From positions 24,099 through 88,098 of the forward strand of contig JAOZPP010000001.1 in assembly GCA_029932675.1 (NCBI GenBank): a stretch of 64,000 nucleotides of DNA, in the 5' to 3' direction. Below are positions 23,868 to 63,807 of the stretch, in pieces (positions within the stretch are counted from its first letter, which is position 1; each line of letters opens with the position of its first letter). The notes under the pieces were generated by a model. The model did not search any database. It was not told the origin of the DNA and saw nothing but the letters and a program-made list of their open reading frames with translations. The position numbers and the translations under genes are program-made. This DNA comes from a bacterium (GTDB lineage: Bacteria > SM23-81 > DAOVCL01).

Positions 23868-23942
23868 TAGGTTCGTGGACTGTTCCTTCCCTAACGCTTG
23901 GATATTACTCGTCTTACGGACTCTTCTCCTCATAGTACACCT

Positions 23943-42076: not shown

Positions 42077-42106
42077 GGCTTGAACTTCTCAACCAAAGGG
42101 GGTCAA

Positions 42107-42916: not shown

Positions 42917-43709
42917 CCATTTCCCGCGGCGCCACTACAAGGCCGTCTATGGTCCCTTGGCTCAGAAGACATTGCACAACCTGCTGAAGCGAGAGCTTAT
43001 GGAGGAGTTTGGCTTTGAGAGTATGGGGTTGATTGCCGATGCCTTAATCAACCGCTTGCTGGAGCTGGTGGATACCTACACCCCTGAGCACTTCAGGCTC
43101 CTTCCTGGTCAGATGCTCTGGTTGGCTGTGGCCCGACAGGAGAAGGTGGGATATGGCAAGTCTATGTTGAGAAGCAAGTTAGTGCCAGTGATAGTCACAG
43201 TGATCAGTGCTGAGGACCTGGAAGCAATGGCAGAGGAGAGGGTTGACTTCAGAGAATTGAGACCCAAGGTAGTGGCTCGCATTCTTAAGGAGACTGATGC
43301 TCAAGGTGGGGTGCTGGCCTTAAGTGATGTGGGGATTATGCTGAGCATCAGTCCGGCAGCGGTCTCCTCTGCTGTCAAAGCCTACCAGGCAGAGCATCCA
43401 GGTGAGGTCTTGCCTTATCGAGGCACCTTGCATGATATGGGACCGACTATGACCCATAAGTTGCAGGCCATAGAATTGAAGCTCCAGGGATGCTTAACCC
43501 AGGAGATTGCCAGACGCATCCATCATGACCCTCAGAATGTGGACATCTACCAGACAGACTTTGAGAGGGTCTACCAGTTGTACCAGGATGGCAAAACCCC
43601 TCGCCAGATCAGCTTTCTGACCAAACTCTCCCTACATCTGGCAGAGGAATATATAGAGCTGATCAACAAGTATGTGGCTGAGGATGACTCATCGGTGTCA
43701 AAGAGCTAA
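42909..43709 (+). CDS. hypothetical protein with two predicted helix-turn-helix motifs (paralog B)
   Basis: GGVLALSDVGIMLSISPAAVSSAVK, DMGPTMTHK and LQGCLTQEIARRIHHDPQNVDIYQTDF align with paralog A. The start overlaps the upstream stop (ATGAGTGA), indicating translational coupling. Confidence 0.6.
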   Translation: MSDHFPRRHYKAVYGPLAQKTLHNLLKRELMEEFGFESMGLIADALINRLLELVDTYTPEHFRLLPGQMLWLAVARQEKVGYGKSMLRSKLVPVIVTVISAEDLEAMAEERVDFRELRPKVVARILKETDAQGGVLALSDVGIMLSISPAAVSSAVKAYQAEHPGEVLPYRGTLHDMGPTMTHKLQAIELKLQGCLTQEIARRIHHDPQNVDIYQTDFERVYQLYQDGKTPRQISFLTKLSLHLAEEYIELINKYVAEDDSSVSKS

Positions 43710-44964: not shown

Positions 44965-46062
44965 CTATGATCTTCTTATTATCTTAGTCTGATAAAAAAG
45001 CTTAAGTTTTTGGCTCAGCTGGACTCGCATGCTTTCGAAACTACTTCTATAAATTGTCATACTCAAGTTCACTCTTGCCTCTTTGGCCCAGTCGAACTTG
45101 TATTCTTCGTCACCACGCAAGAAATCAAATTCCTTCGCACCTTCTAAGATCGCATTCTCAATGCAATAACTGAACAACAAGAATCCGGGGCTTAGCTTCG
45201 CCCACTGCGGGTCAAAGCCGGCCTGATAATAGTAATACTTGCCGCCGTATGCAAAGGTATACATTGAAGCTATAGGTTTGCTCCCTATCTTTAAAAAACA
45301 GAGCCTCAACCAGTTCCTTTTGAAGAATAACCACATCATGTTTCTGTGGAATTCAGAAAATAATTTGTCCTGAAATGGACCGCGCAAACTCCTCTCACGC
45401 ATCCTACTTGTATTCAGCCTTACCAAATCGTTAAATGATTGCTTAAACTCACTGTCCTTTTTTAGAAGGGTGAACTCGCCATCGAATTTATTTTCGAACT
45501 TGTTCCTCTTCCGTTTTATGTTGTACCTCATACTTGGGCTGAGCGATTTAAGGTAGGATTCATAATTGGAAGGCAAGTGCACATAGGGACAAACAGCTTG
45601 CAACCTCGTGAACAGATACCAATCACGATTACAGTATCTGTGAATTAACCATACAGTTTTTGACCCAGCCGGAATGTCAGTAAGCTCGATAGCCCGCCAC
45701 TTAGGTTTCCGTGCGTTTAGATAGTCACGAATCTGAAAAAGGACCTCCGACTCATTCCCATCCTCTATTATGAAGTCTAAATAGTCAGAACCAACAGATG
45801 TTGAGCCCAAGAACTTTACTACACTACCACCCATCACTTTATTTTTAAGTAAGAAGAATGGTGCAATGCCTTTTAGTCTATAACCATCCCGAATGAGCAA
45901 TATCATTAACTCCTTGCCATCTTTGAAGCACTTCCACCAATTATATAGCCAATCCCAAGTTAGAAACAAGACATTTGATTTACTTCTCAACAGCAGTTCG
46001 TTCCACTCATCTCTCAAACCGTAAAAACCTTTATCTGTTCTTATTTCCTCAACTGTAGGCAT
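44965..46062 (-). CDS. GNAT-fold acyltransferase (FemAB/BioF2-like)
   Basis: About 365 aa. Family-level resemblance to exopolysaccharide-locus GNAT acyltransferases. Confidence 0.5.
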   Translation of the reverse strand: MPTVEEIRTDKGFYGLRDEWNELLLRSKSNVLFLTWDWLYNWWKCFKDGKELMILLIRDGYRLKGIAPFFLLKNKVMGGSVVKFLGSTSVGSDYLDFIIEDGNESEVLFQIRDYLNARKPKWRAIELTDIPAGSKTVWLIHRYCNRDWYLFTRLQAVCPYVHLPSNYESYLKSLSPSMRYNIKRKRNKFENKFDGEFTLLKKDSEFKQSFNDLVRLNTSRMRERSLRGPFQDKLFSEFHRNMMWLFFKRNWLRLCFLKIGSKPIASMYTFAYGGKYYYYQAGFDPQWAKLSPGFLLFSYCIENAILEGAKEFDFLRGDEEYKFDWAKEARVNLSMTIYRSSFESMRVQLSQKLKLFYQTKIIRRS

Positions 46063-46123: not shown

Positions 46124-47482
46124 TCAACCGTTAGACCCTTTGACTCCCAGTGATCTGCAAAACTTAGAGAAAACCCTCCTGACCTTAGCAGATAGAAAAC
46201 CTGTTATTGAAGTTAAAAATGGTATTATGTCATCCCAAGCAAAGACAGCCCACTGCTTCTTCCCCAATGTTGAACGAAGCCAGCCCAGTAAGGAAATCGA
46301 GCCCTCTTTTCTATAATCCAAAAATGCGTTAAAGTCGAGAGAAGTCGAAAGCCACTTTATTCCAGTTCTATAAGAGAGATTGGAGGATACTCTTTTCCCA
46401 ATTGTGTCGCAGTAAGCAATATAGGCAAGGTTTACTCCACATCTGGTTCCCAACACATCCCAAAGGCCAAAGCGGGTATTGAATTCAATGAGTTTGAATT
46501 TGCCATCCCTTGAATCCAGTTTAAATTCCATACCACCCAACCCATTATACCCTATATCCTTCAGAAATTTGATACTAATCCTTTCCAGCTCCTCTTCGTA
46601 CACAGATTCAACAAAACTCGCACTGCCGAAGTGAATAGGGTTTAAACGCAGCTTTCTACCGGCGAAGTGACCTAATACCTTGTGAGTTTTAGAGATGTAA
46701 AATACAAAATAAAACAAGTCACTATCATCCCCTGGAATAACCTCTGAAATGATTACATTTGGGTCATAGACTGCAATTCTGCTATAGAAACTTAACAGTT
46801 CGCTACTCTTTGAGATGACAATGACTTTTCCCCATCCGCCCAGGATTTTTCGTATAGACTCTCTGTGCCATGAATCTGACCTCACTGGCTTAATGATACA
46901 GGGATAGGATATCTTTGTAGCTATCTCCCTAACTTCACTTAGGGAATTGGGAATGTATGTAACAGGAACTGGCACATTGAACTCAACGGCTGTTCTATAA
47001 AGTGCGTCCTTTGTAGTCAACTTTTCAATTGTGCTATGCTGGGGCCCAGTAAATAAAAAGAAGTCCTCTAAAATATTTTCATACTTGGCATAGCATAAAA
47101 CGGTGTTGTCCCCGGTAGGGAAGAGAACTGGTTTCTCTCCTAAAGTCTTGCTTAGACTAATCAAGTATTCTATATGTTCATTTTCATTTGATTCAACAGA
47201 GGGACAGATCTTACTTTGACAGTAGCGAGAGTTCATGCCTATTTGCTTTGGATTGGGATCCAAGGCGTATACTGGGATACCTTGTCTACCCAGGGACCTA
47301 ACGATCCCCAGCCCCGAGTAAGACATATAAGTTACCACCGCTGGTGGGTATCGGGAACCACTTTCCCTATAGATAGATTTAGGAGTCAACCGCGAAATAG
47401 GCTCCAACTCCACTGTGGACAAGCTATTTGCCTTGTCTGGGTAAACTTCTTTTTCTTGCATATCCCATAAGTATCTTCCCAT
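46124..47482 (-). CDS. ATP-grasp domain enzyme
   Basis: PPAVVTYMSYSGLGIVRSLGRQGIPVYALD N-domain plus C-terminal ATP-grasp features (EFNTRFG). Start uncertain (47482 or 47461). Confidence 0.6.
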   Translation of the reverse strand: MGRYLWDMQEKEVYPDKANSLSTVELEPISRLTPKSIYRESGSRYPPAVVTYMSYSGLGIVRSLGRQGIPVYALDPNPKQIGMNSRYCQSKICPSVESNENEHIEYLISLSKTLGEKPVLFPTGDNTVLCYAKYENILEDFFLFTGPQHSTIEKLTTKDALYRTAVEFNVPVPVTYIPNSLSEVREIATKISYPCIIKPVRSDSWHRESIRKILGGWGKVIVISKSSELLSFYSRIAVYDPNVIISEVIPGDDSDLFYFVFYISKTHKVLGHFAGRKLRLNPIHFGSASFVESVYEEELERISIKFLKDIGYNGLGGMEFKLDSRDGKFKLIEFNTRFGLWDVLGTRCGVNLAYIAYCDTIGKRVSSNLSYRTGIKWLSTSLDFNAFLDYRKEGSISLLGWLRSTLGKKQWAVFAWDDIIPFLTSITGFLSAKVRRVFSKFCRSLGVKGSNG

Positions 47483-47991: not shown

Positions 47992-48424
47992 CAATAACTT
48001 CGAGGCTCTGACTTACTTTGGTTTTAAAGGTCCCTCCTTTTCCTCCCCAAATTCGCTCAGAAAAAAGGAACCATCCGCCCGGTTTTAATGAATGAAAAAT
48101 CTGCACACAAAGTCTCTCAATTTCCGGAATATGATGTAAAGCATCCCAAGCTGTAACCAGATCATATTTGTTTGGAGTTAACTCGTATTTATTCAAATCC
48201 GCCACAATCCAGTTGATTTTCCCTAGGGGTTTTTGCTTCAGTTGACTATGATATTTTTTAGCTACGTTGATTTCCCTTTCACTACAATCCACAGCATCGA
48301 CAATTTTCCCGGCCCATGCCATTTCTAAACTCAGCCACCCTGCACCGCGACCAAGATCAAGCGCTCTATCCCCGCGGCATCCCCTGGCAAACAGAGTCAA
48401 GGTTCTCCGAAATAAGCTCCTCAT
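47975..48424 (-). CDS. class I SAM-dependent methyltransferase
   Basis: Motif I ALDLGRGAGWLSLEMA. Start moved to ATG 48422-48424 (MRSLFRR) because the upstream in-frame extension to 48589 would overlap the ACP gene by 224 nt in another frame. Confidence 0.5.
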   Translation of the reverse strand: MRSLFRRTLTLFARGCRGDRALDLGRGAGWLSLEMAWAGKIVDAVDCSEREINVAKKYHSQLKQKPLGKINWIVADLNKYELTPNKYDLVTAWDALHHIPEIERLCVQIFHSLKPGGWFLFSERIWGGKGGTFKTKVSQSLEVIVPDYS

Positions 48425-48626
48425 CCTCAACCTGAATGCCAAATGTCTCCTCGACGAAGGAAACCAATTCGAGAACTCCAGTTGAATCGATGATCCCCTT
48501 TTCCAGAAAGGAATCATTGTTCTTAAGCTTATCTTGGTTGTGTCCAAACGGGAAATTATCAAAAATGAATTTTCTAATCTGTTCCTCAATGGACATCTCT
48601 GCTTCTCCTGCAGAAGGGTTCAACAT
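48366..48626 (-). CDS. acyl carrier protein-like
   Basis: 85 aa with GIIDSTGVLELVSFVEETFGIQVEDEE, an ACP-type phosphopantetheine-attachment helix (DSxG). Confidence 0.55.
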   Translation of the reverse strand: MLNPSAGEAEMSIEEQIRKFIFDNFPFGHNQDKLKNNDSFLEKGIIDSTGVLELVSFVEETFGIQVEDEELISENLDSVCQGMPRG

Positions 48627-50497: not shown

Positions 50498-51232
50498 CTA
50501 TCTTGTCTGCAGATTCCCCTTCCCAGATCTTCTGGTCCCCGGTCGCGGTTTCTTATAATACTTGTAGCCGTAATACTTGTAGTCATAGTAATATGGAAGG
50601 ACCTTCTTCGCGTTGTTCAGCACCACCCCAATCAGGTTCACCCCCCCCTCCCTGAGGAGGTCCACTGCCCTCTTAGCCACCTCCCTCTGGGTCTTCCCCG
50701 CCTCTATTACCAAGAGGACCCCGTCCATCTCAGAGCTCAAGATCAATGGGTCACTCACCGGGATGACTGGAGCACAGTCAACGACTATGGTTTGAAAGTA
50801 AAATTTGAGCTCGGAGAATATCTCTTTTATTAGGTTAGAGTTGAAAAGCTCCACTGGGCTTCCGTCCAAGATCCCACTGGTGAGAACCTTCAGGTTCGGC
50901 AAGGGGGTGGATTTGAAACAGGTCTTCAAGGGAACCCCCTTAGTAAGAACTTCGGCTATTCCCCCCTCTCGTTCCAAACCAAAAAGGCTATGTTGAATCG
51001 GCCGGCGGAGGTCACAGTCCACCAAGAGAGTCTTGGTCTCCCTATATTTGGAAATGGCTATAGAGAGGAAAGCGGCCAGAGTACTCTTTCCTTCCCCCAC
51101 AGATGGGCTGGTGATCAAGAAATTCTTCATCTCCCCTTGGGAGGATAACCCCCTGATCCGGGAGTAAAGCCTCCGGAACTCCGTGGGACCGGGAGACTCC
51201 TCGTCGTAAAAAGAGAGTATGTTGTTGTTCAT
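50498..51232 (-). CDS. BY-kinase (CpsD/CapB-type tyrosine autokinase, P-loop ATPase) with C-terminal tyrosine cluster
   Basis: Walker A SPSVGEGKST, A' LLVDCDLRRP, B IVVDCAPV. C-terminal YYYDYKYYGYKYYKK. Confidence 0.75.
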   Translation of the reverse strand: MNNNILSFYDEESPGPTEFRRLYSRIRGLSSQGEMKNFLITSPSVGEGKSTLAAFLSIAISKYRETKTLLVDCDLRRPIQHSLFGLEREGGIAEVLTKGVPLKTCFKSTPLPNLKVLTSGILDGSPVELFNSNLIKEIFSELKFYFQTIVVDCAPVIPVSDPLILSSEMDGVLLVIEAGKTQREVAKRAVDLLREGGVNLIGVVLNNAKKVLPYYYDYKYYGYKYYKKPRPGTRRSGKGNLQTR

Positions 51233-51282
51233 TTTACCTCAATGCGATGTTAACGACCAATAGTCAATATACAATAATTAAT

Positions 51283-51339
51283 TAGCAATGATCAATTAGC
51301 AAGCTCAAATTAAGAATTGAGCAATGGTCAATTAACAAG
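51283..51339. promoter_or_regulatory. paired direct repeats TAGCAATGATCAATTAGCAAG / GAGCAATGGTCAATTAACAAG flanking an imperfect palindrome; candidate regulator binding site
   Basis: 18/21 identical copies spaced 36 bp, upstream of the BY-kinase gene. A related ATCAATTAGCAAG lies at ~52541-52553 upstream of the TPR gene. Confidence 0.35.
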
Positions 51340-51403: not shown

Positions 51404-52522
51404 CTATTTCATAAAGACCTTGAGGAGGAGGTGGAAACCCTTGCTGTCGTTTTCAGCGAGCTTTAGGTTCCTTTTCGCCTTTTCATAGTCTGGGTTTATC
51501 CTTAATGCCTGTCTGAAGTGGTGGATTGCCCGTTCGTTGATATACTTGCAGAGGACGGTATAGGCTATCCCTAAATCGTTATGGATATCCGCAAAGTGGG
51601 GATTCTTCTTAGCAAAATCCTCTAAGCTTTGAATGTACTGCCTCATCGTGGTATCATCTATCTCATCCTCCCTATGTAGAAACCGGAGATAGAAGTCCAG
51701 GGAGAGGGATTCAGCTTGCGAAATGCCCTCCTCGTCCCTGGCCTGATTAAACTCCTTCCAAGCCTCCTCCAATTGATCATTGAGGAGGTGCGCCTTTCCC
51801 CTCTCAAAACCCTCATTACGATAGCCAGGGTTCAATGTTGCCGCCTTTTCCATTGCTTCTAAGGCCTTCCTCTTCAGGTCTGTAGCCAGGGAGTAATCCT
51901 CCTTTACTATTCCATTGAGGATCAAGGCCAAGCTCAGGTTATAATATGCCTCTGCATAATAAGGATTGATCCCCACAGCTTTCTGAAAGCTGTCCGCAGC
52001 AAGCTTGCATTTTTGGGCCTTCAAATAGGCTGCCCCTAAGTTGTTATAGTAGTCCGCATAGTCAGGATCGATGCTTAAGGCCCTCTGAAAGGATAAGATG
52101 GCCTCTGCGGTTCTCTCTAAAGCCAGTTGAGCTTTACCTAAATTGTTGTATATTTTAGAGATGCTCGGATTTGCCCTTATGGCCTCCTGAAATTCGGCAA
52201 TCGCTTCCTCATACATTCCCTTTTCCAGGAAGGCTAAACCAACCCTGTTCTTCGCCTCCGCCTGATTAGAACCTGCAAGGCTCTCGGAAAGCTTAAGAAG
52301 GGATTCAGTCTCTTCCTTCTTCTCCTCATGAAGGGATTTAACCAAGGCTAAAAGAGATTCGTCAGATATCTGCGGATCATAGGAAATTTCATAAGATTTT
52401 ATTAAATTTCCTCCTTCGAAAAGGGAGCAAATTATCCTGTTTTGGAAGGCGTTATTTGATGTCTGAAGTAGATATTCTTTCCCTTTAGCCTTTATGGAAC
52501 TGCTAAAGCCAAAATTAGCCAT
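51404..52522 (-). CDS. TPR repeat protein (exopolysaccharide locus)
   Basis: Multiple TPR motifs (AIAEFQEAIRANPSISKIYNNLGKAQLAL...). Start taken at ATG 52520-52522 (MANFGF). The listed longer ORF begins at a TTG. Confidence 0.6.
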   Translation of the reverse strand: MANFGFSSSIKAKGKEYLLQTSNNAFQNRIICSLFEGGNLIKSYEISYDPQISDESLLALVKSLHEEKKEETESLLKLSESLAGSNQAEAKNRVGLAFLEKGMYEEAIAEFQEAIRANPSISKIYNNLGKAQLALERTAEAILSFQRALSIDPDYADYYNNLGAAYLKAQKCKLAADSFQKAVGINPYYAEAYYNLSLALILNGIVKEDYSLATDLKRKALEAMEKAATLNPGYRNEGFERGKAHLLNDQLEEAWKEFNQARDEEGISQAESLSLDFYLRFLHREDEIDDTTMRQYIQSLEDFAKKNPHFADIHNDLGIAYTVLCKYINERAIHHFRQALRINPDYEKAKRNLKLAENDSKGFHLLLKVFMK

Positions 52523-52577
52523 CTTCCTCCTCACAAACAAATCAATTAGCAAGTTAAAGTAAACCCCAAGTGAGCCA

Positions 52578-53717
52578 CTAATCGGTCATTGTTCCGCCGC
52601 CCAGGGAGGCAAATCTAATCCTCTTCTCCTTAGTATTCAACCCCCTTTCCCTTAACCGGCGGTATATTGTGGAAGCGCTGAGATTTATAAACCCATAAGC
52701 AGAGGTACTCAATTCCCTTTGAATCGATTTGGGGCCCAATTGAGGGTTCTGTTTTACTATCTTCACTATTTCGTTGAAATGGGTGGGACCCCTCCGCGAA
52801 GCTCCGAACCCTGCTTTGCGCCGAGCCTTAATAAGGGCAATTCTCTCCCTTTTCACCTTCTCCCACTCTTCCCTTAACTTCTCCCTCTCCCTCTCCAATA
52901 ACCTCCTCTCCTCATCTAACTTTGCCCTCTCCTCCTTCAGTTTAGCCCATTCATCCTTCTCTGCCCCAGGCTGAACAGCGGGGGTCCCCTTAGAAGGGGC
53001 GGAAACAGACCTTTCGGCAAGTTCCTGACGCAGGGATTTTACTACAAGATGAAGGCGACGCAAACCGACTTTGGTATGACCATATCTCGCAGACCTAAGC
53101 ACTTTCCTCACCTTCCAAACCCCATAGGTGGGATTCTCCTGCAATATCTCCTCTACCTTCTCCTCTATGGTAAGTTCCCTCTTCTCCGGAGGTGGCTCTC
53201 CTCTTGGAGGGAGTTTTTGTTCCTCCTCCATTAAGGGAGCGACCTCCTCTGATAACGATGGGGCCCTCTTCTCCAATGGCGGGGGCACAGCCTCCTCCAC
53301 CTCAGGCTCCTCTGGCTGAATCATTATGGTCTCTTTAACCGGGGATATGGGGATTCCCAATCGGCGAAGAAACCTTTTCTCGGCTTCCTCTACTGTATCA
53401 AATGATTGAATGAAATAATCAAGCTCCAAGAGTTGAAAGACCTCCTGTACTCCGGGTTGCATTGCTGCAAGCTTGATATCTCCTCCGCGACTGCGCACCT
53501 CCTTTATCTGCCCGGTAAATATACCCCATCCCGCACTGCTAATGTAATTCACCCCAGAGAGGTCCACAATTACGCGCCATAGTCCCTTCTCTATGATGGT
53601 GGTCAAAGCCTTCTCCAAGTCATCAGCCGATTCGGCATCGAGCACCCCTCTCACCTCAACTATACATATCCTCCCCTCAGGAGGACCTACTGCCCTTATA
53701 GATATCTCAGCGCTCAT
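52578..53717 (-). CDS. STAS-domain (anti-sigma-factor-antagonist-like) protein fused to a Pro/Glu-rich coiled-coil region and two C-terminal HTH-like repeats
   Basis: N-terminal IVEVRGVLDAESADDLEKALTTIIEKGLWRVIVDLSGVNYISSAGWGIF is SpoIIAA-like. C-terminal repeats ENPTYGVWKVRKVLRSARYGHTKVGLRRL and QNPQLGPKSIQRELSTSAYGFINLSASTIYRRL. Confidence 0.5.
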   Translation of the reverse strand: MSAEISIRAVGPPEGRICIVEVRGVLDAESADDLEKALTTIIEKGLWRVIVDLSGVNYISSAGWGIFTGQIKEVRSRGGDIKLAAMQPGVQEVFQLLELDYFIQSFDTVEEAEKRFLRRLGIPISPVKETIMIQPEEPEVEEAVPPPLEKRAPSLSEEVAPLMEEEQKLPPRGEPPPEKRELTIEEKVEEILQENPTYGVWKVRKVLRSARYGHTKVGLRRLHLVVKSLRQELAERSVSAPSKGTPAVQPGAEKDEWAKLKEERAKLDEERRLLEREREKLREEWEKVKRERIALIKARRKAGFGASRRGPTHFNEIVKIVKQNPQLGPKSIQRELSTSAYGFINLSASTIYRRLRERGLNTKEKRIRFASLGGGTMTD

Positions 53718-55285
53718 TAACCCCTTCCTTGGAAAAAGGTGAGGTAGAAAAAGATGGAAAGAAGAACTAAGATAAAGAAAACCTTTAACCCAATGAATCT
53801 CTCCCTTTGCCTTAGCCTATGGGGGATCCCCATCCAGGGAATCGTTCCCAGGACAGGAAGTCCCAATAGAGCCTCCACTTCTTCAACTTTTTTAAAAGAG
53901 TGGTCCATATATTCGGTCAAAAACACCAAGCCAAAACCGGTCATAGAGCCGAGGATAAAACCTAAGAGGAGGAGTTTCCTGCGATCTGGTTTCACTGGTT
54001 TAAGGGGTTTGGTCGCCGGCTCCAGTATTTTGAACCTGTATTCTGCCTCTGCTCTTTTCAGGGATTCCTCGATCTGAGAGCCCTGCGATTGCTCTAAGAA
54101 CATATTGTAAAGCCTTCTGTTGGCCTCAACTTCATCCTGAAGCCTGGAAAGGGCCAGCTCCTGGGCAGGGCCTTTGGTCAAGCTCTTTGTATATTCACCA
54201 ATGAAATTTAAGAGGTTCTCCCTCTTTCTCTTCAAAAACTCCATACTTTCCTTGGTTATCTCAGCCTCAGCCAAGTTAGAGGAGGAGGTTTCCTTCCTGA
54301 TTAGTTGTTCAATTCTTCCCCGGATATCGGCAACAAGTTGGTTCAGCTTCACCACCTTTGCATCAGTCCAGGAATACCTCCCCAATAGCCCTGGTAGCTG
54401 GTCTATTGCCTTCCTTAGCTCATCTTTCAACCTGAGAAGTTGGGGAGAGGAATGGTGATTAAGGAGAGAAAGCTCCTGAGGGGTAAGCTTTGATTTGAGA
54501 AAATTTAGGTGATCCTCCGCCTCCTTTAACTCCATCTCGGTAGAGGAAATCATTGAATTTATCTGAGCTAAATTGGCGGAGGTAATGGAATAGTCCTGAA
54601 TTTGGCTTTTTAGCATCTTCTCCTTAAATTTGCGCAGTTTTTCCTCTGACTCCTTCAGTTTGGCTTGATAGATCTCCAACTGCTCTTTGCTGAAGTTCAA
54701 GGCCTCCCGGATTCCTCCCAGTTCGCCCTTCAGAGTCTCTTGAATAAAGATCTCGCTTAAGGTCTTCGCCACCTTATAGGCCCCCTCGGGAGTTGAGCTT
54801 CGTGCCTTTATCTTCAGGATGCCCTCCTGCTCAGAGTGAACATCAATTTTTCTCCGTAAAGAGTTAATTAACCAGGTCTCCATAATTTGATCTACCGTAA
54901 GGTCAGGGTAATTAGGCTTGGCCTTCATCGCTTTCTCCCTAAGAAGAGGATTATTCATTAAGCCTAATTTAACTATCAATTTACTCATATACTCCCGACA
55001 GGTGACTCTCCTCTTTAAGGCGTTGATCCACCATTGATACTCCCTACTTCCCGGCCTTTGGTCAGAACGGGAGCCAGGAACCATCCTCTGGACGGAGGAA
55101 CTTAGGAAATTTGTCCCCCCAACCATAATGGTAGTGGAGGACTCATAAACTGGAGATATCTTATAACTTCCCAAAAATACGGTAAGGAGGATAACCACTA
55201 AGGGCAAGAGGAAGAGATGTTTCCTCCGTAAAAAAATCTGCCAATACTCTCTAATATCTACTTTAATTCCCTGTTCCAACTGCAT
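53717..55285 (-). CDS. polysaccharide chain-length determinant protein (Wzz/GumC/EpsF-like co-polymerase)
   Basis: N-terminal TM after IDIREYWQIFLRRKHLFLLPLVVILLTVFLG. Long periplasmic coiled-coil. C-terminal TM. Overlaps the next gene by 1 nt. Confidence 0.7.
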   Translation of the reverse strand: MQLEQGIKVDIREYWQIFLRRKHLFLLPLVVILLTVFLGSYKISPVYESSTTIMVGGTNFLSSSVQRMVPGSRSDQRPGSREYQWWINALKRRVTCREYMSKLIVKLGLMNNPLLREKAMKAKPNYPDLTVDQIMETWLINSLRRKIDVHSEQEGILKIKARSSTPEGAYKVAKTLSEIFIQETLKGELGGIREALNFSKEQLEIYQAKLKESEEKLRKFKEKMLKSQIQDYSITSANLAQINSMISSTEMELKEAEDHLNFLKSKLTPQELSLLNHHSSPQLLRLKDELRKAIDQLPGLLGRYSWTDAKVVKLNQLVADIRGRIEQLIRKETSSSNLAEAEITKESMEFLKRKRENLLNFIGEYTKSLTKGPAQELALSRLQDEVEANRRLYNMFLEQSQGSQIEESLKRAEAEYRFKILEPATKPLKPVKPDRRKLLLLGFILGSMTGFGLVFLTEYMDHSFKKVEEVEALLGLPVLGTIPWMGIPHRLRQRERFIGLKVFFILVLLSIFFYLTFFQGRG

Positions 55286-55360: not shown

Positions 55361-56305
55361 TCACCGGGAGGAGAGCCTATCCACCAGGAGGTAGATTCCA
55401 CTAAGCGTGCCCAAAATTCCAATTACATCCCTGGTTGTTCCCCAAAATCCCCTCCAAAACGTGGACTTACGGGGGACGAAAACCGTGTCTCCAGGCCTTA
55501 GAAGAAAAGGAGAAGGGACCCCGGAAGGTGATTCTTCCAAGTTAACCTTTGCCACCCGGGAATAGGGGAGCCCCTGGCTCACTACCGTCACCTCACTCAG
55601 CTTGGCCTCAGGTGTGGGACCTCCAGCCATCACGATGGCCGCCAGAAGGCTCATATTCTTCTCAATGGTATAGGCTCCAGGGCGGCTGACCTCACCATAG
55701 AGATAAACCCTTTTGCCTCCCAGCTCAGTCGATCCCCCTCCGGTTGATATTCCCGGTATATAGACTGTATCCCCTGATTTGAGGGAAGGGAGAAGGGAGG
55801 GGTCCCCTGTCTCCAGAAATTTGGTCAAGTCCACCAGAATTGGCCTCTGCCCTTGGCCTCTGATGATGGTTACCCCACTCAAGATAGCGGTCTCCGTGGG
55901 ACCTCCAGCCTCAAGGATAGCCTGCCAGAGGTTGGGGAGTGCCTCAAATGTATACTTGCCTGGGGTGAGAACCTGCCCAGTAAGATATATCTTCTTACTT
56001 CCATATTGGGTAACAACCACAGTGGCCTGGGTAATCCCCTTGTTGTAGATAGAGATTTTTTCCACTATCTTCTTGCCCAATTGAGTAGGGGTGAGGCCGG
56101 CCGCGGTTACTGAACCTATTATGGGTAGGGTTATCTTACCATCCCGCCCTACCCTGACCTGAGCGTTCAGATCGGGCTGCTGCCAAAACTGAATGGAGAG
56201 GACGTCATCTTGACCAATCACATACTCCCCAGCAACCAGGGAGAGCGACCAGAGAAGAAGAACGAATAAGACGATTCCCCATTTTATATATCGGCAATCC
56301 ATCAT
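55361..56305 (-). CDS. polysaccharide export protein (Wza/EpsE-like, Poly_export + SLBB domains)
   Basis: Signal peptide, then YVIGQDDVLSIQFWQQPDLNAQVRVGRDGKITLPIIGSVTAAGLTPTQL. Duplicated SLBB-like GDTVYIPG/GDTVFVPR. Confidence 0.75.
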   Translation of the reverse strand: MMDCRYIKWGIVLFVLLLWSLSLVAGEYVIGQDDVLSIQFWQQPDLNAQVRVGRDGKITLPIIGSVTAAGLTPTQLGKKIVEKISIYNKGITQATVVVTQYGSKKIYLTGQVLTPGKYTFEALPNLWQAILEAGGPTETAILSGVTIIRGQGQRPILVDLTKFLETGDPSLLPSLKSGDTVYIPGISTGGGSTELGGKRVYLYGEVSRPGAYTIEKNMSLLAAIVMAGGPTPEAKLSEVTVVSQGLPYSRVAKVNLEESPSGVPSPFLLRPGDTVFVPRKSTFWRGFWGTTRDVIGILGTLSGIYLLVDRLSSR

Positions 56306-57120
56306 TACTCCTTTAGTCTATTTTGAATAAAACATACTGGAAAAAAATGAAATTGGCAAGGGAAAAAGCCACGGAAAATACTTCGGCGGTTTAAACCGTT
56401 CAATAATAGGCAAAAAGTAACCACTATGCGGGAATAGAATTGGCTAACCCCAAAGAAACCCCAAGAAAGAACTTGGTTCACTACAAGTCCTCCCTATAGC
56501 GGCTATCACCCCTCTGGTCTACAATAATCCCCCTCATCCCTTGAGGGGGTCATAACTTCTGTAAACAACCCTTTGCTTTGGGCATTTCTGAGAAGCTCCA
56601 AAAGGTTCTATAAAAGCTGCTCAGGAGCGGATCAGGGCAAAATGGGCATAATAAGATATAAGCAAAATCTGTGCCAAGGAAGGGGAACAAGTAAGTAATT
56701 CGGGGTTTCTCCTTCTATCCCCAAATTCTCCCCCCTTGGAGAGACTAATTTACCCTCCTTTGCCATAGAGTGTTTTCCTTTTATCTCCGCATTTTGCAAA
56801 GGGCTGCAAAGTTTATGCAAATACCTTCAACGAGAAGAGAAATTCCTCTTGATTTTCCCTCCCCCACTGCTTATTTTATAACCATCTCTACTACCTCAGT
56901 GGAACTGCTTACCTAACCCGGATTGTTCATAAGCACCTCACGGATGGATCTCAAGAGCTGTTCCTACAGCAAAAATATTAAGAAATTTGGGACTCGATGC
57001 TAATTTCTGAATAAATCGGGAAAGGGAAATCCGCAACCGGGCAGGAGCGGTTAGGTAAAAACTTTTAGCGTCAAGGCTTTCATATAGGGAAACATCTGCT
57101 AACCCTTGAGGATATCGATT

Positions 57121-58365: not shown

Positions 58366-60425
58366 TGGGAGGTAGGATTCTTGTTGTAGACGACGAGGAA
58401 AGGATGTGCGAAAGCATGCGCGCCCTCCTCTCTCAAGAGGGATATGAGGTAGATACAGCCTTAGATGGAATTGAAGCCATCAAGAAGGCTCAAAAAGGAA
58501 GATTCGACATGGTAATTACCGACCTGAGGATGTCCCCGATAGATGGGATCAAAGTATTGGAGGGCGTAAAGGAAGCATCTCCTCAGACACTTATAGTCAT
58601 CCTCACCGCTTATGCCACCCTGGATTCAGCCATAGAAGCCATAGGCAAAGGGGCTTATGATTACCTGATGAAACCGGTGGAATTCCCAGATTTGAAGAAA
58701 ACGGTGGAGCGGGGGATGGAGAAGTTAGAATGGGAGCGAAGGCAGAGAGAGCTCATGATAGAACTCCGGGAGAAGAATATCCTCTTGGAACAGAGGCTAC
58801 GGGAATTAGACGCTGTCTATGAGGCTTCGACTTCTCTTATCTCCGTGCTCAAGCTCGATGATAGCTTAGAGAGGATTGTGAACTTAGCTGCGGATGTCTT
58901 AGGGGCTAAATTAGGTTCTTTAATGATCTTAGATGAGAAAGGAAAGTATTTAACTATAAAGGCAGCAAAAGGGCTGGAAGAAGATATCATTAGGCAGACA
59001 AGACAAAAGGTTGAGGGAAGCATCTCTGGTTGGGTAGCCCAGAAGGGAGAACCTCTGCTTGTGGAGGATATCGAATTAGACCCCCGCTTCCGAAGATTGA
59101 ACCGACAAAAGTACGAGACCAAATCTCTTCTCAGCGTTCCCCTAAAGATCAAGGGAAAGATTTTAGGGGTGTTGAATATGAACAACAAATCATCGGGAGA
59201 CCCTTTTAACAAATCTGACCTCCGCCTTCTTTCTACCTTCGCCTCTCAAGCCGCTTTGGCCATTGAGAACGCTGCCCTCTTCGAGGAGAGCCGAAAGAGG
59301 ATTAAGGAACTCTCTGTCCTCTATAGGATTGCCAGTAACCTCCCATCTTCTGAAAACCGGGAGTCTATGATCCTTATGGTCTGTCAGGGTTTAATGGAGA
59401 TAATGAATGTAGAGAACTGTTATTGGTTCCAGGGTGAGGGCAAAGAGTTCAATCTCGTTTACACTTGCCAGGAAGGGAAACCCACCTCCTTCCCCCCCCT
59501 TAAGCTAAAAATTGAAGAAGACCTTAGCTCAGAAAACCTTTCCCAAAGGGTGCACGCCTTCTTGGTCGCTAATGGCCTGCTCTCTTCCCAGGCTAAGGGA
59601 ACCCTCTCAGTCCCCCTGATGATTAGAGGAAAACTGAGGGGCATCTTCTCCCTATCAGCTCCAGAGGAACTCTCCGAGCGGGAGAAGAAGCTAACGTCAA
59701 TCTTAGTCTCCCAGGCCACTTCCCTCTACGAGACCCAAAGCGCCATCCTCTCAGCCGGCCAACTGATGATTATGGGCCAACTTGTTTCAGAGATCAGCCA
59801 TGACCTTAAACAACCATTGACCAGTATGCGTGGAACCCTCCAGATGCTCAAACAAAAGTGGGACAAACTGCCCTCGAAGGAGGAATATCTGAACAACTTG
59901 GAAAAGGATATAATGACGCTCTCTGATTTGGTCAGGGAATTACTTCGCTTCTCCAATCCTCAGTCATATGCTCGCCAACCAAAACAGATTACCGTGATAA
60001 TTGATCGGGCCTTGGAGCTAGTGGGAAGTGAGTTAGAGGCAAATGATATCAGGGTAGAGATCACTTCCCCCTCCCCACTACCCTCGCTTCTCTTAAACGA
60101 AAACGAGATCCTCCAGGCAATAATCAACATCATCTTCAATTCGATCCAGGCCATGCCATCTGGGGGGAGACTGGGGATAAAGGTCCAAGAGGTGAAGAAA
60201 AAGGGAAGAAATTTCCTAAAAGTTGAAATTTCCGATACCGGGGTAGGTATACCGGCCGAGAACTTAAGTCACATATTTGACCGTTACTTCACCACCAAAG
60301 AAGGAGGGACTGGTCTAGGCCTCTCTATCGTCAAAAGAATCATTACCGCTCATCAAGGAGAAATGGAGGTAAAAAGCACCCTTGGGAAGGGGACAACTTT
60401 TAACATCTATCTACCCATATTATGA
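58365..60425 (+). CDS. hybrid response-regulator receiver / tandem GAF / histidine kinase protein
   Basis: REC ILVVDDEERM...MVITDLRMSPIDG. Two GAF-like regions. HisKA/HATPase_c (EISHDLKQPL, DTGVGI, GTGLGLSI). Overlaps neighbours by 1 and 4 nt. Confidence 0.75.
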   Translation: MGGRILVVDDEERMCESMRALLSQEGYEVDTALDGIEAIKKAQKGRFDMVITDLRMSPIDGIKVLEGVKEASPQTLIVILTAYATLDSAIEAIGKGAYDYLMKPVEFPDLKKTVERGMEKLEWERRQRELMIELREKNILLEQRLRELDAVYEASTSLISVLKLDDSLERIVNLAADVLGAKLGSLMILDEKGKYLTIKAAKGLEEDIIRQTRQKVEGSISGWVAQKGEPLLVEDIELDPRFRRLNRQKYETKSLLSVPLKIKGKILGVLNMNNKSSGDPFNKSDLRLLSTFASQAALAIENAALFEESRKRIKELSVLYRIASNLPSSENRESMILMVCQGLMEIMNVENCYWFQGEGKEFNLVYTCQEGKPTSFPPLKLKIEEDLSSENLSQRVHAFLVANGLLSSQAKGTLSVPLMIRGKLRGIFSLSAPEELSEREKKLTSILVSQATSLYETQSAILSAGQLMIMGQLVSEISHDLKQPLTSMRGTLQMLKQKWDKLPSKEEYLNNLEKDIMTLSDLVRELLRFSNPQSYARQPKQITVIIDRALELVGSELEANDIRVEITSPSPLPSLLLNENEILQAIINIIFNSIQAMPSGGRLGIKVQEVKKKGRNFLKVEISDTGVGIPAENLSHIFDRYFTTKEGGTGLGLSIVKRIITAHQGEMEVKSTLGKGTTFNIYLPIL

Positions 60426-61810
60426 GAAAAGAAGAGGAAAACAAGGTCCTTGTAGTCGACGATGACCCCCGCATCTGCTGGATGCTTAATGAAGCCCTTA
60501 AAGACGAAGGTTATCAGGTCTTCACCGCCAGGGATGGACAATCTGCACTCCAGATAGCACTCAAAGAGAATCCTCAGGTGATGGTCTTGGATATAAAACT
60601 ACCCGATATAAGCGGATTGGAAGTACTGGAAAGGTTGCGTCAAGCAGAACTAAGGGTGGAGGTAATCATCCTCTCCGCCCACGGGGAGACTAAGAATGTA
60701 GTGAAGGCCATAAAATTAGGGGCGGCGGATTTCGTTAACAAACCATTCGATATTGAGGAAGTAAAGATGCATATCCGCAATACCCTGGAGAAGGGGAGAC
60801 TGAAGAAAGAAGTGCAGTTTCTCCGCTCCGAGTTGAAGGCCAAGAACAAGTTCGAGAGCTTCATTGGAGATAGCCCCCAGATCATAGAGATAAAGAAATT
60901 AATAGAAGAGGTGGCGGATAGTGGCCTTACCGTTCTCATCCGTGGTGAAAGCGGAACGGGGAAGGAGATCATCGCCAGGATACTCCACCACATCTCCTCC
61001 AGAAGAAGTGGACCATTCATTAAGGTTAACTGCGCGGCTATCCCCAAGGAGCTCTTAGAGGCAGAGCTTTTCGGATATGAAAGAGGAGCCTTTACCGGAG
61101 CCTACAAGCGAAAGCCGGGTAGGTTCGAGTTGGCCAACCAGGGAACCATCTTCCTCGATGAAATCGGTGACATGCCTATTGAACTCCAAGCGAAGCTTCT
61201 TCAAATCTTAGAACATCGGGAATTCGTCAGGGTGGGAGGGGTGGAGACCATCTCTGTGGATGTGAGAATCATCTGTGCCACAAATCAAGATCTGGAAAAG
61301 AACTTAGCTGAGGGAACTATGCGCGAGGACCTCTATTACCGGTTAAATGAGATAACCATCCCCATACCACCTTTAAGGGAGCGGAGAGAGGATATCCCCC
61401 TTCTGATAGAACACTTCATCAATATCTATAATAAACAATTCAACCGGCAATTCCCTCCCCTCTCCCCCTCCACTTTGCAAGCCATAGAGGAATATGACTG
61501 GCCCGGAAATGTAAGGGAATTGGAGAACCTGATAAAACAGACCATAGTTCGGGGAGATGAAGGGATCATTAAATCTGAACTGAAAAAGAGAAGTTCCCTT
61601 TCTTCCTCCTCCCCCTCTCCCCCCCAGACCACTGAGGATGAGCTCTCCCTGAAGAAAGCCAGCCAGAAGGCCATAGAGGAGACGGAAAAGAACCTGATCA
61701 GCAAGGCTTTAAATCAGACCAATTGGAATAGGAGGAAAGCCTCCCAGCTTCTGGGGATAAGCTATAGGTCCCTCCTCTATAAAATCAAGGAATACGGGCT
61801 GGGTACTTAA
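60422..61810 (+). CDS. sigma-54-dependent Fis-family response regulator (NtrC class; PrsR-like)
   Basis: REC domain. AAA+ GESGTGKE. GAFTGA-type ERGAFTGA. C-terminal Fis HTH QLLGISYRSLLYKIKEYGL. Confidence 0.85.
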   Translation: MRKEEENKVLVVDDDPRICWMLNEALKDEGYQVFTARDGQSALQIALKENPQVMVLDIKLPDISGLEVLERLRQAELRVEVIILSAHGETKNVVKAIKLGAADFVNKPFDIEEVKMHIRNTLEKGRLKKEVQFLRSELKAKNKFESFIGDSPQIIEIKKLIEEVADSGLTVLIRGESGTGKEIIARILHHISSRRSGPFIKVNCAAIPKELLEAELFGYERGAFTGAYKRKPGRFELANQGTIFLDEIGDMPIELQAKLLQILEHREFVRVGGVETISVDVRIICATNQDLEKNLAEGTMREDLYYRLNEITIPIPPLRERREDIPLLIEHFINIYNKQFNRQFPPLSPSTLQAIEEYDWPGNVRELENLIKQTIVRGDEGIIKSELKKRSSLSSSSPSPPQTTEDELSLKKASQKAIEETEKNLISKALNQTNWNRRKASQLLGISYRSLLYKIKEYGLGT

Positions 61811-62079: not shown

Positions 62080-63807
62080 TTGAAGGTAAAAATTGCCCGA
62101 TACGCTGGTTTCTGTTGGGGAGTAAGAAGAGCGGTAAATATGGTTCTGGAGGCTGTACACAGAAGGGAACCGAACCTATTCACCTATGGGGCTCTCATCC
62201 ACAATCCTCAAGTCACTGGGCTCCTCCAAAACCTCGGCGTGGGGATTATAAATAACCCCTCGGATGTTACTCCCAACATCAACCTTTTCATAAGGTCGCA
62301 TGGGATATCCCCTCGGGAGAGGAAAGAGCTTCAGGACCGGGGAGCAAAGATCCATGATGCCACTTGCCCTTTGGTGGAGGTCGTGCAGAAGACGATCGAA
62401 AAATTTTCCCAAGATGGATATGGAATAATCATCGTCGGAGAGGCTCACCACCCCGAGGTATCCGCTTTATTGGAGTTTGCTCAGGGCAAAGGGGTAGCGA
62501 TCTCGAAAGAGGATGAGGTGAGGAAGCTTCCCCAATGGGAGAAGGTGTGCGTGGTTGCCCAGACGACCCAGGAGAGGAGAACTTTCAAAGAATTGGCTAA
62601 ACAAATTAGGGCCAAATACCGAAACTGCAGAGTATTTGACACCATCTGCCCAGCAACTGGAAAGAGACAGGAGGAGGTGCGAAAACTTTGTTCCAGGGTA
62701 GAGGCGATAGTGGTAGTTGGGGGGAGAAATAGCGCCAATACAACCCGCTTAGCCCAGATCTCCCGCTCCTTAGGGAAACCTACCTTCCATATAGAAACTG
62801 AGGAGGAGATAGGAAGGAAAGATTTTATAGGGGTAAAATCTATAGGTATAACTGCAGGAGCCTCCACGCCCAATTGGATAATTCAAAGGGTAGTGGAGAG
62901 GATAGAAAACCTGGAGAGGAGCGGTGGGTTGAGAGGACTTTTCTTCCGCGGGATAAGGTTCCTCATCCGCAGCAACCTCTACCTAGCCTTTGGAATAGCC
63001 TGCTTCAGCTATGCAGCAAGCCGCTTGCAGGGGGGCGAGCCCAGACTGGCTTTCCTTCTGGTAGCCTCGGGATACGTCTTCTCTATGCACCTTATCAACC
63101 ACTATACAGACCCCTCCCCGGCGAATTTCAACGAACCCTACAGGGTTTCCTTCTACCGCCAGCATAGATCCGCTCTGCTGAGCTTAGCTCTCCTCTCGTT
63201 GGTACTTACCATATCTTTATCCATTTATTTGGGTTCTCTCCCCTTCATCCTGCTTGCTTTTTTATCCTTAATGGGGGCAGTTTATCGGTTAAAGATCATC
63301 CCCCCTAGCTGGCCAATACTTCCTTATCGAAGGTTAGTGGAAATACCAGGCTCGAAGGATATCTTCCTCGCCTTGGCCTGGACCCTGGTAATAGTGGCTC
63401 TCCAGGGCCTGAGCAAGGGGAATAAGCTATCGCCTTCCTTGGGAGTAGCCTTTGCCTTCACCTTCATCCTCTCTTTGGTTAGGTCTACCCTCTTCAGCCT
63501 CAAGGACATTCAAGGGGATAGAATCGTGGGGAGAGAAACCTTACCGATAATCTTAGGAAAGAAGAAAACAAAACTGTTTCTGGTGACCATTTTAGCCCTC
63601 CTTAGCCTCCTCCTCCCCTTCTCCTGGATGCGGGGGTGGACATCCTCCCTAAGCCTCTGGTTACTCCCTACAGTGGCCTATTCTTACTTCTACCTTTTCC
63701 TCTACCATAAAAGAGTTATCTTTCAAGGTATTCTTTCCGAGGCGGTAGTGGATACGGGCTTTATCCTCTCCGGTGTCAGCGGTTATCTCTGGTCTCTTAT
63801 CCACTAA
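62080..63807 (+). CDS. ispH: fusion protein: 4-hydroxy-3-methylbut-2-enyl diphosphate reductase (IspH/LytB) N-terminal domain + UbiA-family prenyltransferase-like membrane domain
   Basis: IspH motifs GFCWGV, DATCPLV, GEAHHPEV, VVAQTTQ, ICPATGKRQ, VVVGGRNSANTTRL, GITAGASTP. C-terminal ~290 aa has 8-9 TM helices with UbiA-like NHYTDPSPANFNEPYR and KDIQGDRIVGRETLPI Asp-rich motifs. Confidence 0.75.
   Translation: MKVKIARYAGFCWGVRRAVNMVLEAVHRREPNLFTYGALIHNPQVTGLLQNLGVGIINNPSDVTPNINLFIRSHGISPRERKELQDRGAKIHDATCPLVEVVQKTIEKFSQDGYGIIIVGEAHHPEVSALLEFAQGKGVAISKEDEVRKLPQWEKVCVVAQTTQERRTFKELAKQIRAKYRNCRVFDTICPATGKRQEEVRKLCSRVEAIVVVGGRNSANTTRLAQISRSLGKPTFHIETEEEIGRKDFIGVKSIGITAGASTPNWIIQRVVERIENLERSGGLRGLFFRGIRFLIRSNLYLAFGIACFSYAASRLQGGEPRLAFLLVASGYVFSMHLINHYTDPSPANFNEPYRVSFYRQHRSALLSLALLSLVLTISLSIYLGSLPFILLAFLSLMGAVYRLKIIPPSWPILPYRRLVEIPGSKDIFLALAWTLVIVALQGLSKGNKLSPSLGVAFAFTFILSLVRSTLFSLKDIQGDRIVGRETLPIILGKKKTKLFLVTILALLSLLLPFSWMRGWTSSLSLWLLPTVAYSYFYLFLYHKRVIFQGILSEAVVDTGFILSGVSGYLWSLIH

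Follow-up and report, generated by a model that had tools for sequence, protein, structure and literature searches.

The 64-kb stretch of DNA analysed here (64,000 nucleotides of contig JAOZPP010000001.1; hereafter the window) holds, inside an exopolysaccharide (EPS) export operon, a gene whose 379-aa product combines a STAS domain, a Pro/Glu-rich linker, one long helix and two helix-turn-helix (HTH)-like modules, in the order STAS-linker-module 1-helix-module 2 (Table 1). This open reading frame (ORF) had been picked out from its letters alone, and in that sequence-only reading it was described as a STAS domain fused to a linker, a coiled coil and two HTH-like repeats; every element so described is there, and both of the peptides that were quoted for the repeats occur in the translation. 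The STAS-module gene has an ATG start and lies, as had been read, between a Wzz-like gene and the genes for a tetratricopeptide repeat (TPR) protein and a BY-kinase, with its start overlapping the stop of the Wzz-like gene by 1 nt (TAATG) and with a Shine-Dalgarno-like run (GGAAGGGG) just upstream. A TAATG-type overlap of 1 nt is found in the relative locus L001 too, and the Wzz-like and STAS-module genes are predicted from this layout to be translationally coupled. The protein has an identical copy in public assemblies (P0001), and we found no name for these proteins in public databases. The best explanation for the gene is that it is an EPS-locus paralogue of a widespread, unnamed partner-switching family, in which a STAS domain is combined with a transposase-related three-helix module.

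The assignment of the N-terminus to the STAS domains was confirmed by profile models and by the predicted fold. Residues 15-112 matched Pfam STAS (PF01740) with E=2.1e-20 and 72.9 bits (cutoff 22.6), and the NCBIfam model of the anti-sigma-factor-antagonist superfamily, TIGR00377, was passed with 67.8 bits (cutoff 53.45). The SpoIIAA equivalog model TIGR02886 gave 49.2 bits and its cutoff of 114.75 was not reached, so that the protein is not a SpoIIAA orthologue. Among the sequences of the PDB the domain matched TM1442/SpoIIAA at E about 1e-9. In a model built with AlphaFold2 (AF2) on a 22-sequence family alignment, the predicted local distance difference test score (pLDDT) exceeded 90 over most of residues 21-110, and Foldseek gave target template-modelling (TM) scores of 0.83-0.92 to SpoIIAA, RsbV and TM1442, the best structural matches being SpoIIAA in its complex with SpoIIAB and RsbV in its complex with RsbW, while the STAS domains of SLC26/SulP proteins ranked behind. 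Ser61 is invariant in 22 of 22 family members, as is the S-A-G-W-G motif, and in the HMMER alignment it stands opposite the first Ser of D-S-S-G in SpoIIAA (1auz), which is phospho-Ser58 of that protein. The domain is of the phosphorylatable class, with a conserved Ser at the start of helix 2, and we infer that Ser61 is probably phosphorylated in a reversible way.

The remainder of the protein consists, in the AF2 model, of separate well-defined domains with disordered segments between them. The linker is rich in proline and acidic residues (11 Pro and 12 Asp/Glu among the 57 residues 116-172) and its pLDDT falls below 50 over residues 128-178. Three-helix bundles are predicted at residues 184-238 (module 1) and 312-357 (module 2), the latter with a tail helix at 363-371, and module 1 is separated by a short disordered spacer (residues 240-249, pLDDT below 50) from a single helix of 50 residues, 253-302, modelled with high confidence. 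That the two modules are repeats of one another, as had been proposed, is borne out by a single pairwise BLASTP comparison (E=3e-5), by a profile of the C-terminal modules of the family, which matched both of them (i-E 9.5e-10 and 1.8e-28), and by the two modelled bundles. The coiled coil of the sequence-only reading holds in part: the long helix carries Leu or Val at exact heptad spacing (260, 267, 274, 281, 288, 295), these positions are hydrophobic in the window-clade rows inspected (alignment A1), and P0009 has a similar Leu-heptad stretch, but the second core position is Trp/Arg, which makes the helix zipper-like and not a proven canonical dimeric coiled coil. On the model, it is a possible zipper or dimerisation element.

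Table 1. Features of the STAS-module gene, its operon and the surrounding EPS locus, in window positions
Feature	Position	Strand	Basis
STAS-module gene	52578..53717	(-)	379-aa ORF, ATG start; order STAS-linker-module 1-helix-module 2
STAS domain, residues 1-120, SpoIIAA/RsbV class	53358..53717	(-)	Pfam, PDB matches, Foldseek
Ser61 codon, putative phospho-acceptor within the S-A-G-W-G motif	53535..53537	(-)	alignment
Disordered Pro/Glu-rich linker, residues 121-180	53178..53357	(-)	composition, AF2
Module 1, residues 181-238, three-helix, HTH-like, "substrate type"	53004..53177	(-)	Pfam HTH_21, subtype comparison
Long helix, residues 253-302, Leu heptads	52812..52961	(-)	AF2, heptad register
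Module 2 and basic tail, residues 308-372, HTH-like, "enzyme type", ending ...GLNTKEKRIRFASL	52602..52796	(-)	
Wzz-like chain-length determinant (polysaccharide co-polymerase, PCP)	53717..55285	(-)	TIGR03007 E=4.7e-55 (under its cutoff), GNVR domain, TAATG overlap
TPR partner gene, cytoplasmic-looking, 372 aa, distinctive non-TPR N-terminal domain	51404..52522	(-)	orthologue alignment
BY-kinase (polysaccharide tyrosine autokinase)	50498..51232	(-)	TIGR01007 140.4 bits, cutoff 108
Wza-like outer-membrane polysaccharide export protein, first gene of the operon	55361..56305	(-)	Poly_export and SLBB domains
Predicted sigma-54-type promoter TGGCACAGATTTTGCT upstream of the Wza operon	56661..56676	(-)	exact match to TGGCAC-N5-TTGCW
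13-nt cis-element CTTGCTAATTGAT, STAS/TPR spacer	52541..52553	(-)	positionally conserved in L001
Three more copies of the 13-nt element, TPR/BY-kinase spacer (span 51277..51339)	51291-51303; 51277-51289, 51327-51339	(-)	first exact, other two degenerate; L001 counterpart at 12605-12617
Exosortase EpsH	21746-22582		domain scan
EpsI/DUF3485	20897-21538		domain scan

A first homology search retrieved 26 relatives of the window protein, seven of them full-length with 65-72% identity, and the more distant ones (about 30% identity) either full-length or about 265 aa long. Their common core is a STAS domain, a variable linker and a single C-terminal module with a basic tail, LNTKEKRxRF/Y, at the extreme C-terminus. 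Over the seven full-length relatives the mean identity to the window protein is 86.8% in the STAS domain, 73.6% in module 1, 72.7% in the long helix and 77.9% in module 2 with its tail, against 41.8% in the linker and 28.1% in the spacer; such high identity in the folded parts, next to linkers that drift, indicates purifying selection on each folded part. Eight representatives of the window clade have the full frame without interruption. When the module alone was used in an exhaustive profile search, 713 representative clusters were recovered at E<=1e-3 and 159 at E<=1e-10. Among 170 sequences examined the family STAS domain is present in 99, of which 91 have one module and 8 have two, the two-module layout being restricted to the eight window-clade sequences. 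Relatives are encoded in at least 596 genomes of a species-representative scan, and all the locus counts given below rest on the best 80 loci of these genomes, which come mostly from metagenome-assembled genomes (MAGs) of Calditrichota, KSB1 and Bacteroidota/Cytophagia. Our literature search returned nothing relevant on the family, on STAS domains in PEP-CTERM loci or on the function of HTH_21.

The evidence for partner switching comes mainly from gene neighbourhoods. Of the 80 loci, 60 have a gene for a bifunctional enzyme, usually about 1,060-1,470 codons long, that is followed after 30-80 bp and on the same strand by the STAS-module gene (215-270 aa), and a Caldithrix abyssi MAG (L011) is among the carriers of such a kinase-linked operon. 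The enzyme has an N-terminal HATPase_c_2 domain (RsbW/SpoIIAB-type Ser kinase), a HAMP domain, sometimes together with Cache, and a SpoIIE-type PP2C domain; at about residues 725-790 it carries the same three-helix module, followed by C-terminal TPR repeats. To judge from these domains the arrangement is an operon of a kinase/phosphatase plus its substrate, with the module on both proteins. The sequence-only reading had proposed a partner-switching regulator, and comparison backs this proposal strongly, through the 60 linked loci and the alignment of Ser61, although within the window itself we found no kinase or phosphatase of this type. Its further suggestion was that the protein may couple a signalling state to DNA binding or to the export machinery, and the link to export is supported by what we observed across the family. 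Export genes recur as neighbours in independent lineages: besides the window clade, with its Wzz/TPR/BY-kinase neighbours, this is seen in 8 of the 80 loci, where the STAS-module gene lies instead directly upstream of Wza and Wzc genes, for P0013 and P0016 of the first search, which are placed in the same way, for P0008, whose gene comes after a GNVR/Wzz gene, and for P0009, which is also beside export genes. Four assemblies (OZ254086.1, CAZHIZ01, CAZRBA01 and JALWEA01) hold kinase-linked and EPS-linked paralogues at separate loci. Both settings meet at the locus L085, where the genes for the kinase/phosphatase, a ParA-like ATPase, the STAS-module protein, a GAF-GGDEF cyclase, Wza, Wzz, the TPR protein, the BY-kinase and the XrtA-type deacetylase follow one another on the same strand, and from Wza onward their order is exactly that of the window. 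We also noticed in L085 that the ParA/MinD-like ATPase gene (9141-9989) overlaps both the kinase/phosphatase gene and the STAS-module gene, and that the gene after the STAS gene encodes a GAF-GGDEF diguanylate cyclase (10725-12452), which hints at a cyclic di-GMP connection for the family.

The two modules of the window protein are of different kinds. Module 1 is colinear with the single module of the kinase-linked STAS proteins, and since the L085 STAS protein aligns colinearly to window residues 4-227, module 1 occupies the canonical position and the helix with module 2 is a C-terminal extension. Module 1 scores a median of 44-45 bits against STAS-borne and 30 bits against enzyme-borne modules, module 2 a median of 37-39 bits against STAS-borne and 45 bits against enzyme-borne ones; compared with the modules of P0008, P0010, P0011 and P0014, module 1 reaches 21-26 bits and module 2 52-67 bits. 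By these scores the window protein joins a "substrate-type" module 1 with an "enzyme-type" module 2, and because the subtypes differ we could rule out that the repeats arose by a recent tandem duplication of the HTH. The module was also seen in other settings: P0038 and P0076 have 3-4 modules N-terminal to T2SSC and PDZ domains (GspC-like envelope proteins), P0091 combines HTHs with a family 2 glycosyltransferase (GT2), P0140 a module with TPR, and P0027 consists of five modules alone. These occurrences suggest a broader role of the module in envelope and secretion systems.

A second conserved component is the TPR protein encoded next. Wherever a STAS protein ends in an enzyme-type module, the next gene is an orthologue of the TPR gene; such an orthologue stands directly after the STAS-module gene in the window and in L001, L004, L008, L090 and L091, with or without EPS genes nearby. 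The TPR gene follows in three diverged clades, in two of them together with the BY-kinase gene; the order STAS-TPR-BY-kinase is shared by the window with L001 and L091, and L085 keeps the TPR-BY-kinase order, its TPR protein, between Wzz and BY-kinase, being a full-length orthologue of that of the window (E=9e-76). The orthologues (372-386 aa) are colinear, with 33-44% identity between lineages. The start of the window TPR gene is most likely the ATG at 52522 (MANFGF...) and not the TTG at 52552: the ATG has a GGAGGA upstream and agrees both with the alignment of the orthologues and with the gene call in the public record. We considered whether the TPR protein could be the detached C-terminus of the kinase/phosphatase, a "split enzyme", and rejected it: the match is confined to the TPR repeats (E 1e-8 to 1e-11) and the N-terminal domain of the TPR protein is without counterpart in the enzymes, so that this origin is a weak hint at most. 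A RomY-like N-terminal domain at TPR residues 4-70 was likewise dropped, with 29.7 bits against a cutoff of 50 and matches in 2 of 6 orthologues.

The window as a whole is a complete exosortase-type EPS locus. Apart from the genes in Table 1 it encodes an XrtA-type deacetylase (375.7 bits, cutoff 276.2), glycosyltransferases, and Wzy-like, flippase and FemAB-like proteins, and two GAF sensor kinases with a sigma-54-dependent response regulator (60422-61810) are encoded divergently. It thereby resembles the XrtA/PEP-CTERM exosortase EPS loci (Haft-type set), with which it has in common EpsH, EpsI/DUF3485, the XrtA deacetylase, Wza, the chain-length determinant, the BY-kinase, the FemAB-like gene, the sensor kinases and the sigma-54 regulator. 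To our knowledge, the published PEP-CTERM gene set has neither a STAS protein nor this TPR protein in the interval from the chain-length determinant to the kinase, and a literature search for the STAS and TPR combination in PEP-CTERM loci found nothing; the pair of STAS-module and TPR proteins is an uncharacterised regulatory pair that is added to exosortase-type EPS loci. The sigma-54-type promoter predicted before the Wza operon is kept before Wza in L001 (7116-7131). There is a second exact match to a promoter of this type in the window, at 25692-25707 (-), 37 nt upstream of an unannotated ORF of 570 aa at 23943-25655 (-), and both predicted promoters fit the sigma-54-dependent response regulator.

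The spacers around the TPR gene contain in addition a short repeated element of 13 nt, CTTGYTAATTGAY, which flanks that gene and lies just upstream of the TPR and BY-kinase genes. In L001 its copies are at 11380-11392, 11296-11308, 12605-12617 and 7194-7206, including a further copy before Wza, and 5 matches were counted in this locus against 0.95 expected, a number that was reached in 0 of 100 shuffles. Nearly all copies are on the coding strand, and the element has partial dyad neighbours. We regard CTTGYTAATTGAY as a candidate operator or a candidate mRNA element. A reading of the copy in the STAS/TPR spacer, CTTGCTAATTGAT, as a sigma-54 promoter was discarded on inspection, because its GG and GC are wrongly spaced for one.

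Partner-switching control of polysaccharide synthesis by STAS proteins is already known, and the closest parallel in function and context is the SypA/SypE pair of Vibrio fischeri. SypA is a STAS protein encoded inside the sigma-54-controlled syp polysaccharide locus together with export proteins, and SypE is a bifunctional RsbW-type Ser kinase and PP2C phosphatase; the active state of SypA is set by a conserved Ser, with no evidence for control of a sigma factor, and its target and mechanism are stated to be unknown (PMC4517449). The present family is similar in that a kinase-HAMP-PP2C gene lies beside the STAS gene and in that EPS-locus paralogues exist, and the window gene in that it sits within a polysaccharide locus with a predicted sigma-54 promoter and a sigma-54 response regulator. 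The likeness is one of function and context, not of sequence, and the lineages are unrelated (MAGs of Calditrichota, KSB1 and Bacteroidota versus Vibrio). SypA is a single domain, whereas the STAS domain of the window protein is followed by a disordered linker and by two HTH-like modules with a long helix between them, and where SypE has a central receiver the family enzyme has HAMP (sometimes Cache), the module and TPR repeats. The sequence-only reading had taken STAS domains to be normally stand-alone or attached to SulP transporters, which overlooks the STAS-glycosyltransferase fusions All4160 of Anabaena and XssP of Synechocystis, the nearest known case of a STAS domain joined to its effector in the control of polysaccharide. 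In this system, with the phosphatase HenR and the kinase Alr3423, Ser phosphorylation controls envelope or exopolysaccharide formation without a sigma factor, and it has been described as direct control of a biosynthetic enzyme (bioRxiv 10.64898/2026.04.08.717354; PMC13555669). The window protein shares with All4160 and XssP the fusion of STAS to an effector part, which is a glycosyltransferase in those proteins and a pair of small non-catalytic HTH-like modules here; the Anabaena kinase and phosphatase are separate proteins, whereas the family enzyme is bifunctional. With the SpoIIAA/SpoIIAB/SpoIIE and RsbV/RsbW/RsbU systems the family shares the STAS fold, the position of the phospho-Ser, the HATPase_c_2 kinase and the SpoIIE-type PP2C, but it differs in that no sigma or anti-sigma output is evident, in that kinase and phosphatase are fused in a membrane sensor, and in that the substrate has extra domains. 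No sigma-70-family sigma or anti-sigma gene was found next to the STAS-module gene, either in the window or in the loci examined. What sets the family apart is the small transposase-like HTH module as effector, the enzyme with the same module and TPR repeats, and, in the window clade, the two module subtypes on a zipper-like helix with a dedicated TPR partner.

We hypothesise that the window protein acts post-translationally on the Wzz/TPR/BY-kinase export complex, with its modules and helix as docking or oligomerisation elements, an account that we prefer and to which we give slightly less than an even chance. The bifunctional enzyme would phosphorylate and dephosphorylate the invariant Ser61-equivalent of the STAS domain, the kinase/phosphatase for the window protein would be encoded elsewhere in the genome, and the state of phosphorylation would set whether the protein engages its target, as in the SypA/SypE pair. 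The 1-nt overlap and the operon-wide sigma-54 promoter would tie production of the protein to that of the Wzz-like co-polymerase, and the protein would act together with the products of the next two genes, the conserved TPR protein and the BY-kinase; in this way polymer export or chain-length control could be gated by a signal sensed elsewhere in the genome. Which target the protein has, and in which direction it regulates, are points that we infer. Docking is favoured because the module is also found on membrane-anchored enzymes, in tandem arrays with T2SS-C/PDZ and on a GT2 glycosyltransferase, because the gene is by all signs translationally coupled inside a structural export operon, and because none of the best-studied analogues is known to work by way of a sigma factor, the regulation of All4160 being described as direct enzyme control.

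Several observations weigh against this account. A six-frame search of the window with the RsbW-type kinase and PP2C domains of three family enzymes found no match at E up to 1, and a scan of the window ORFs of at least 150 aa likewise found no kinase or phosphatase of the partner-switching type; as some Vibrio SypA orthologues occur without SypE, the switch may here be regulated differently or not at all. The predicted TM score (pTM) of the AF2 model is 0.39 and confident interdomain packing is absent, so no fixed packing is predicted between the domains. The likeness of the TPR protein to the C-terminal TPRs of the enzymes does not extend beyond the repeats and may be of a kind that TPRs share in general. 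Finally, the Pfam models nearest to the modules are those of transposase DNA-binding domains, the modules are basic, with net charges of +6 and +8 (-7 for the STAS domain), and nearly every domain that resembles them in fold is a DNA binder of the HTH or winged-helix kind (among them ArgR, Lrp, Fur, NarL, the sigma-54 RpoN domain, Pax and the RED subdomain of Sleeping Beauty), which establishes that an HTH fold is present. For the C-terminal half no solved structure was found by sequence, and by fold the matches were generic HTHs only.

Fold, Pfam neighbours and basic charge make a DNA-binding output a serious rival, in which the two basic modules, dimerised by the Leu-heptad helix, would bind an operator in the EPS locus under the control of the phospho-switch; transcription would then be tuned alongside the sigma-54 system, and the enzyme-borne module would tether to, or compete for, the same DNA or the STAS protein. 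Two HTHs held apart by a zipper-like helix would be a classic DNA-binding layout, and the 13-nt element conserved in the clade, with its partial dyad neighbours, lies on either side of the gene that follows. That element, however, is confined to window-clade loci while the module occurs throughout the family, and the element's bias to the coding strand fits an element acting at the RNA level equally well. Nor would one expect an operator-binding domain on membrane-anchored kinase/phosphatases or in arrays of 3-5 copies with T2SS-C/PDZ, where its presence would be unusual, and the gene lies mid-operon with a structural gene to which it is apparently translationally coupled. On balance we consider a DNA-binding regulator possible but doubtful. 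A constitutive scaffold seems to us improbable, and clearly more so than DNA binding: here the lineage would have lost the enzyme, the protein would have taken up an enzyme-type module, and the unphosphorylated STAS domain would serve as a protein- or ligand-binding domain in an adaptor of the Wzz/BY-kinase complex that works with the TPR protein. It would account for the lack of a kinase/phosphatase within the window and for the enzyme-borne subtype of module 2, the module-TPR layout of the enzyme being mirrored by module 2 and the separate TPR gene, and pairs of STAS-module and TPR genes do occur with no kinase/phosphatase within about 10 kb (L004, L008) or within shorter contigs (L090, L091), much as SypA orthologues persist in V. 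vulnificus and V. parahaemolyticus, where SypE is lacking (PMC4517449). Yet Ser61 and SAGWG are invariant in these lineages too, which suggests that the phospho-site has been retained, and four assemblies encode the enzyme at a locus other than that of the EPS-type paralogue, so linkage is not required; moreover, the view of this genome is one of 64 kb.

The resemblance of the modules to transposases also raised the question of a decayed insertion sequence (IS) fusion, in which the C-terminal half would be a functionless remnant of the N-terminus of an IS3/IS481/Tc1-like transposase, an outcome that the sequence-only reading had itself named as fatal to its proposal. The C-terminal repeats do match transposase-type HTH models. 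Within the whole protein module 1 passes Pfam HTH_21 (PF13276, the IS3-type "HTH-like domain") with 30.3 bits (cutoff 28.1), and the tandem-module relative P0027 reaches 138 bits on the same model; when 22 C-terminal modules were scanned by themselves, HTH_21 matched only 1 of them, even at E up to 0.01. Module 2 stays just under the cutoffs of HTH_Tnp_Tc3_2 (30.8 vs 31.5 bits) and HTH_32 (22.7-26.7 vs 33.7 bits), and most family modules score under Pfam cutoffs; an IS3 transposase NCBIfam model matched module 1 at E=1.7e-5, far under the model's cutoff, and module 2 matched an IS481 model weakly. The modules thus share with the N-terminal HTHs of transposases (HTH_21 of IS3-family OrfB, HTH_Tnp_Tc3_2, HTH_32) a three-helix form and similar sequence features. 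Unlike transposases, they have a basic tail of their own (LNTKEKRxRF/Y) and lack any mobile-element context: no transposase catalytic domain (DDE/rve) was found in the ORF or its neighbours, and neither IS-like inverted repeats nor other remnants of an IS border the gene. The frame is unbroken in the eight clade representatives, whose modules are 74-78% identical while the linkers drift, the core of STAS and module is widespread (at least 596 species genomes; 99 of 170 sequences), and the synteny with the TPR gene and with the kinase/phosphatase is conserved. For this gene we therefore reject the decayed fusion, to which we give practically no chance, and it persists solely as a statement on the deep evolutionary origin of the module.

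Within the partner-switching family as we read it, a more speculative step can be considered, which we put forward tentatively and think rather unlikely. The transposase-derived module could be a novel kind of "address tag" of partner switching, that is, a homo- or heterotypic docking domain or a shared DNA- or TPR-binding domain carried by the Ser kinase/phosphatase and by its STAS substrates, which would physically connect a single membrane sensor with several outputs, the Wzz/TPR/BY-kinase machine among them, and the window protein, with one module of each subtype on a zipper helix and with a detached TPR partner, would be a self-contained rewiring of this circuit. Neither extra STAS domains nor extra copies of the module were found in the window. 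If true, the address-tag reading would define a sigma-independent output class of partner switching that is common across Calditrichota, KSB1 and Bacteroidota. It is an open question how SypA and other STAS proteins govern polysaccharide production without a sigma factor, and for this question the family offers a natural experiment: a STAS domain attached to a presumed effector, an enzyme with the same module, the apparent coupling to the co-polymerase gene and a TPR protein and BY-kinase downstream narrow the candidate targets sharply. The transposase-like HTH, domesticated in at least 596 species genomes, is found mostly in poorly studied sediment phyla, and most of its carriers are uncultured MAGs.

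Other parts of the EPS locus also show features worth recording. At 42065-43709 (+), on the opposite strand and in the middle of the locus, are two DUF1670 genes side by side, of which one has an HTH_23-like motif, in a block with a GC content of 0.51 against about 0.40 around it; they give the impression of an inserted element or of a regulator pair separate from the rest. Downstream of the XrtA deacetylase gene a small ORF (48366-48626, -) has, by eye from its sequence, the look of an acyl- or peptidyl-carrier protein, and it is followed by genes for an ATP-grasp enzyme (46124-47482, -) and a FemAB-like GNAT acyltransferase (44965-46062, -), a set that suggests aminoacyl or acyl decoration of the polysaccharide. 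Large proteins with Ig-like/FlgD-Ig repeats are encoded beside the exosortase genes (15920-18991, - and 23121-23933, -) and may be PEP-CTERM-type sorted substrates. Lastly, a single ORF at 62080-63807 (+) contains both a LytB (IspH) and a UbiA prenyltransferase domain, an unusual fusion.

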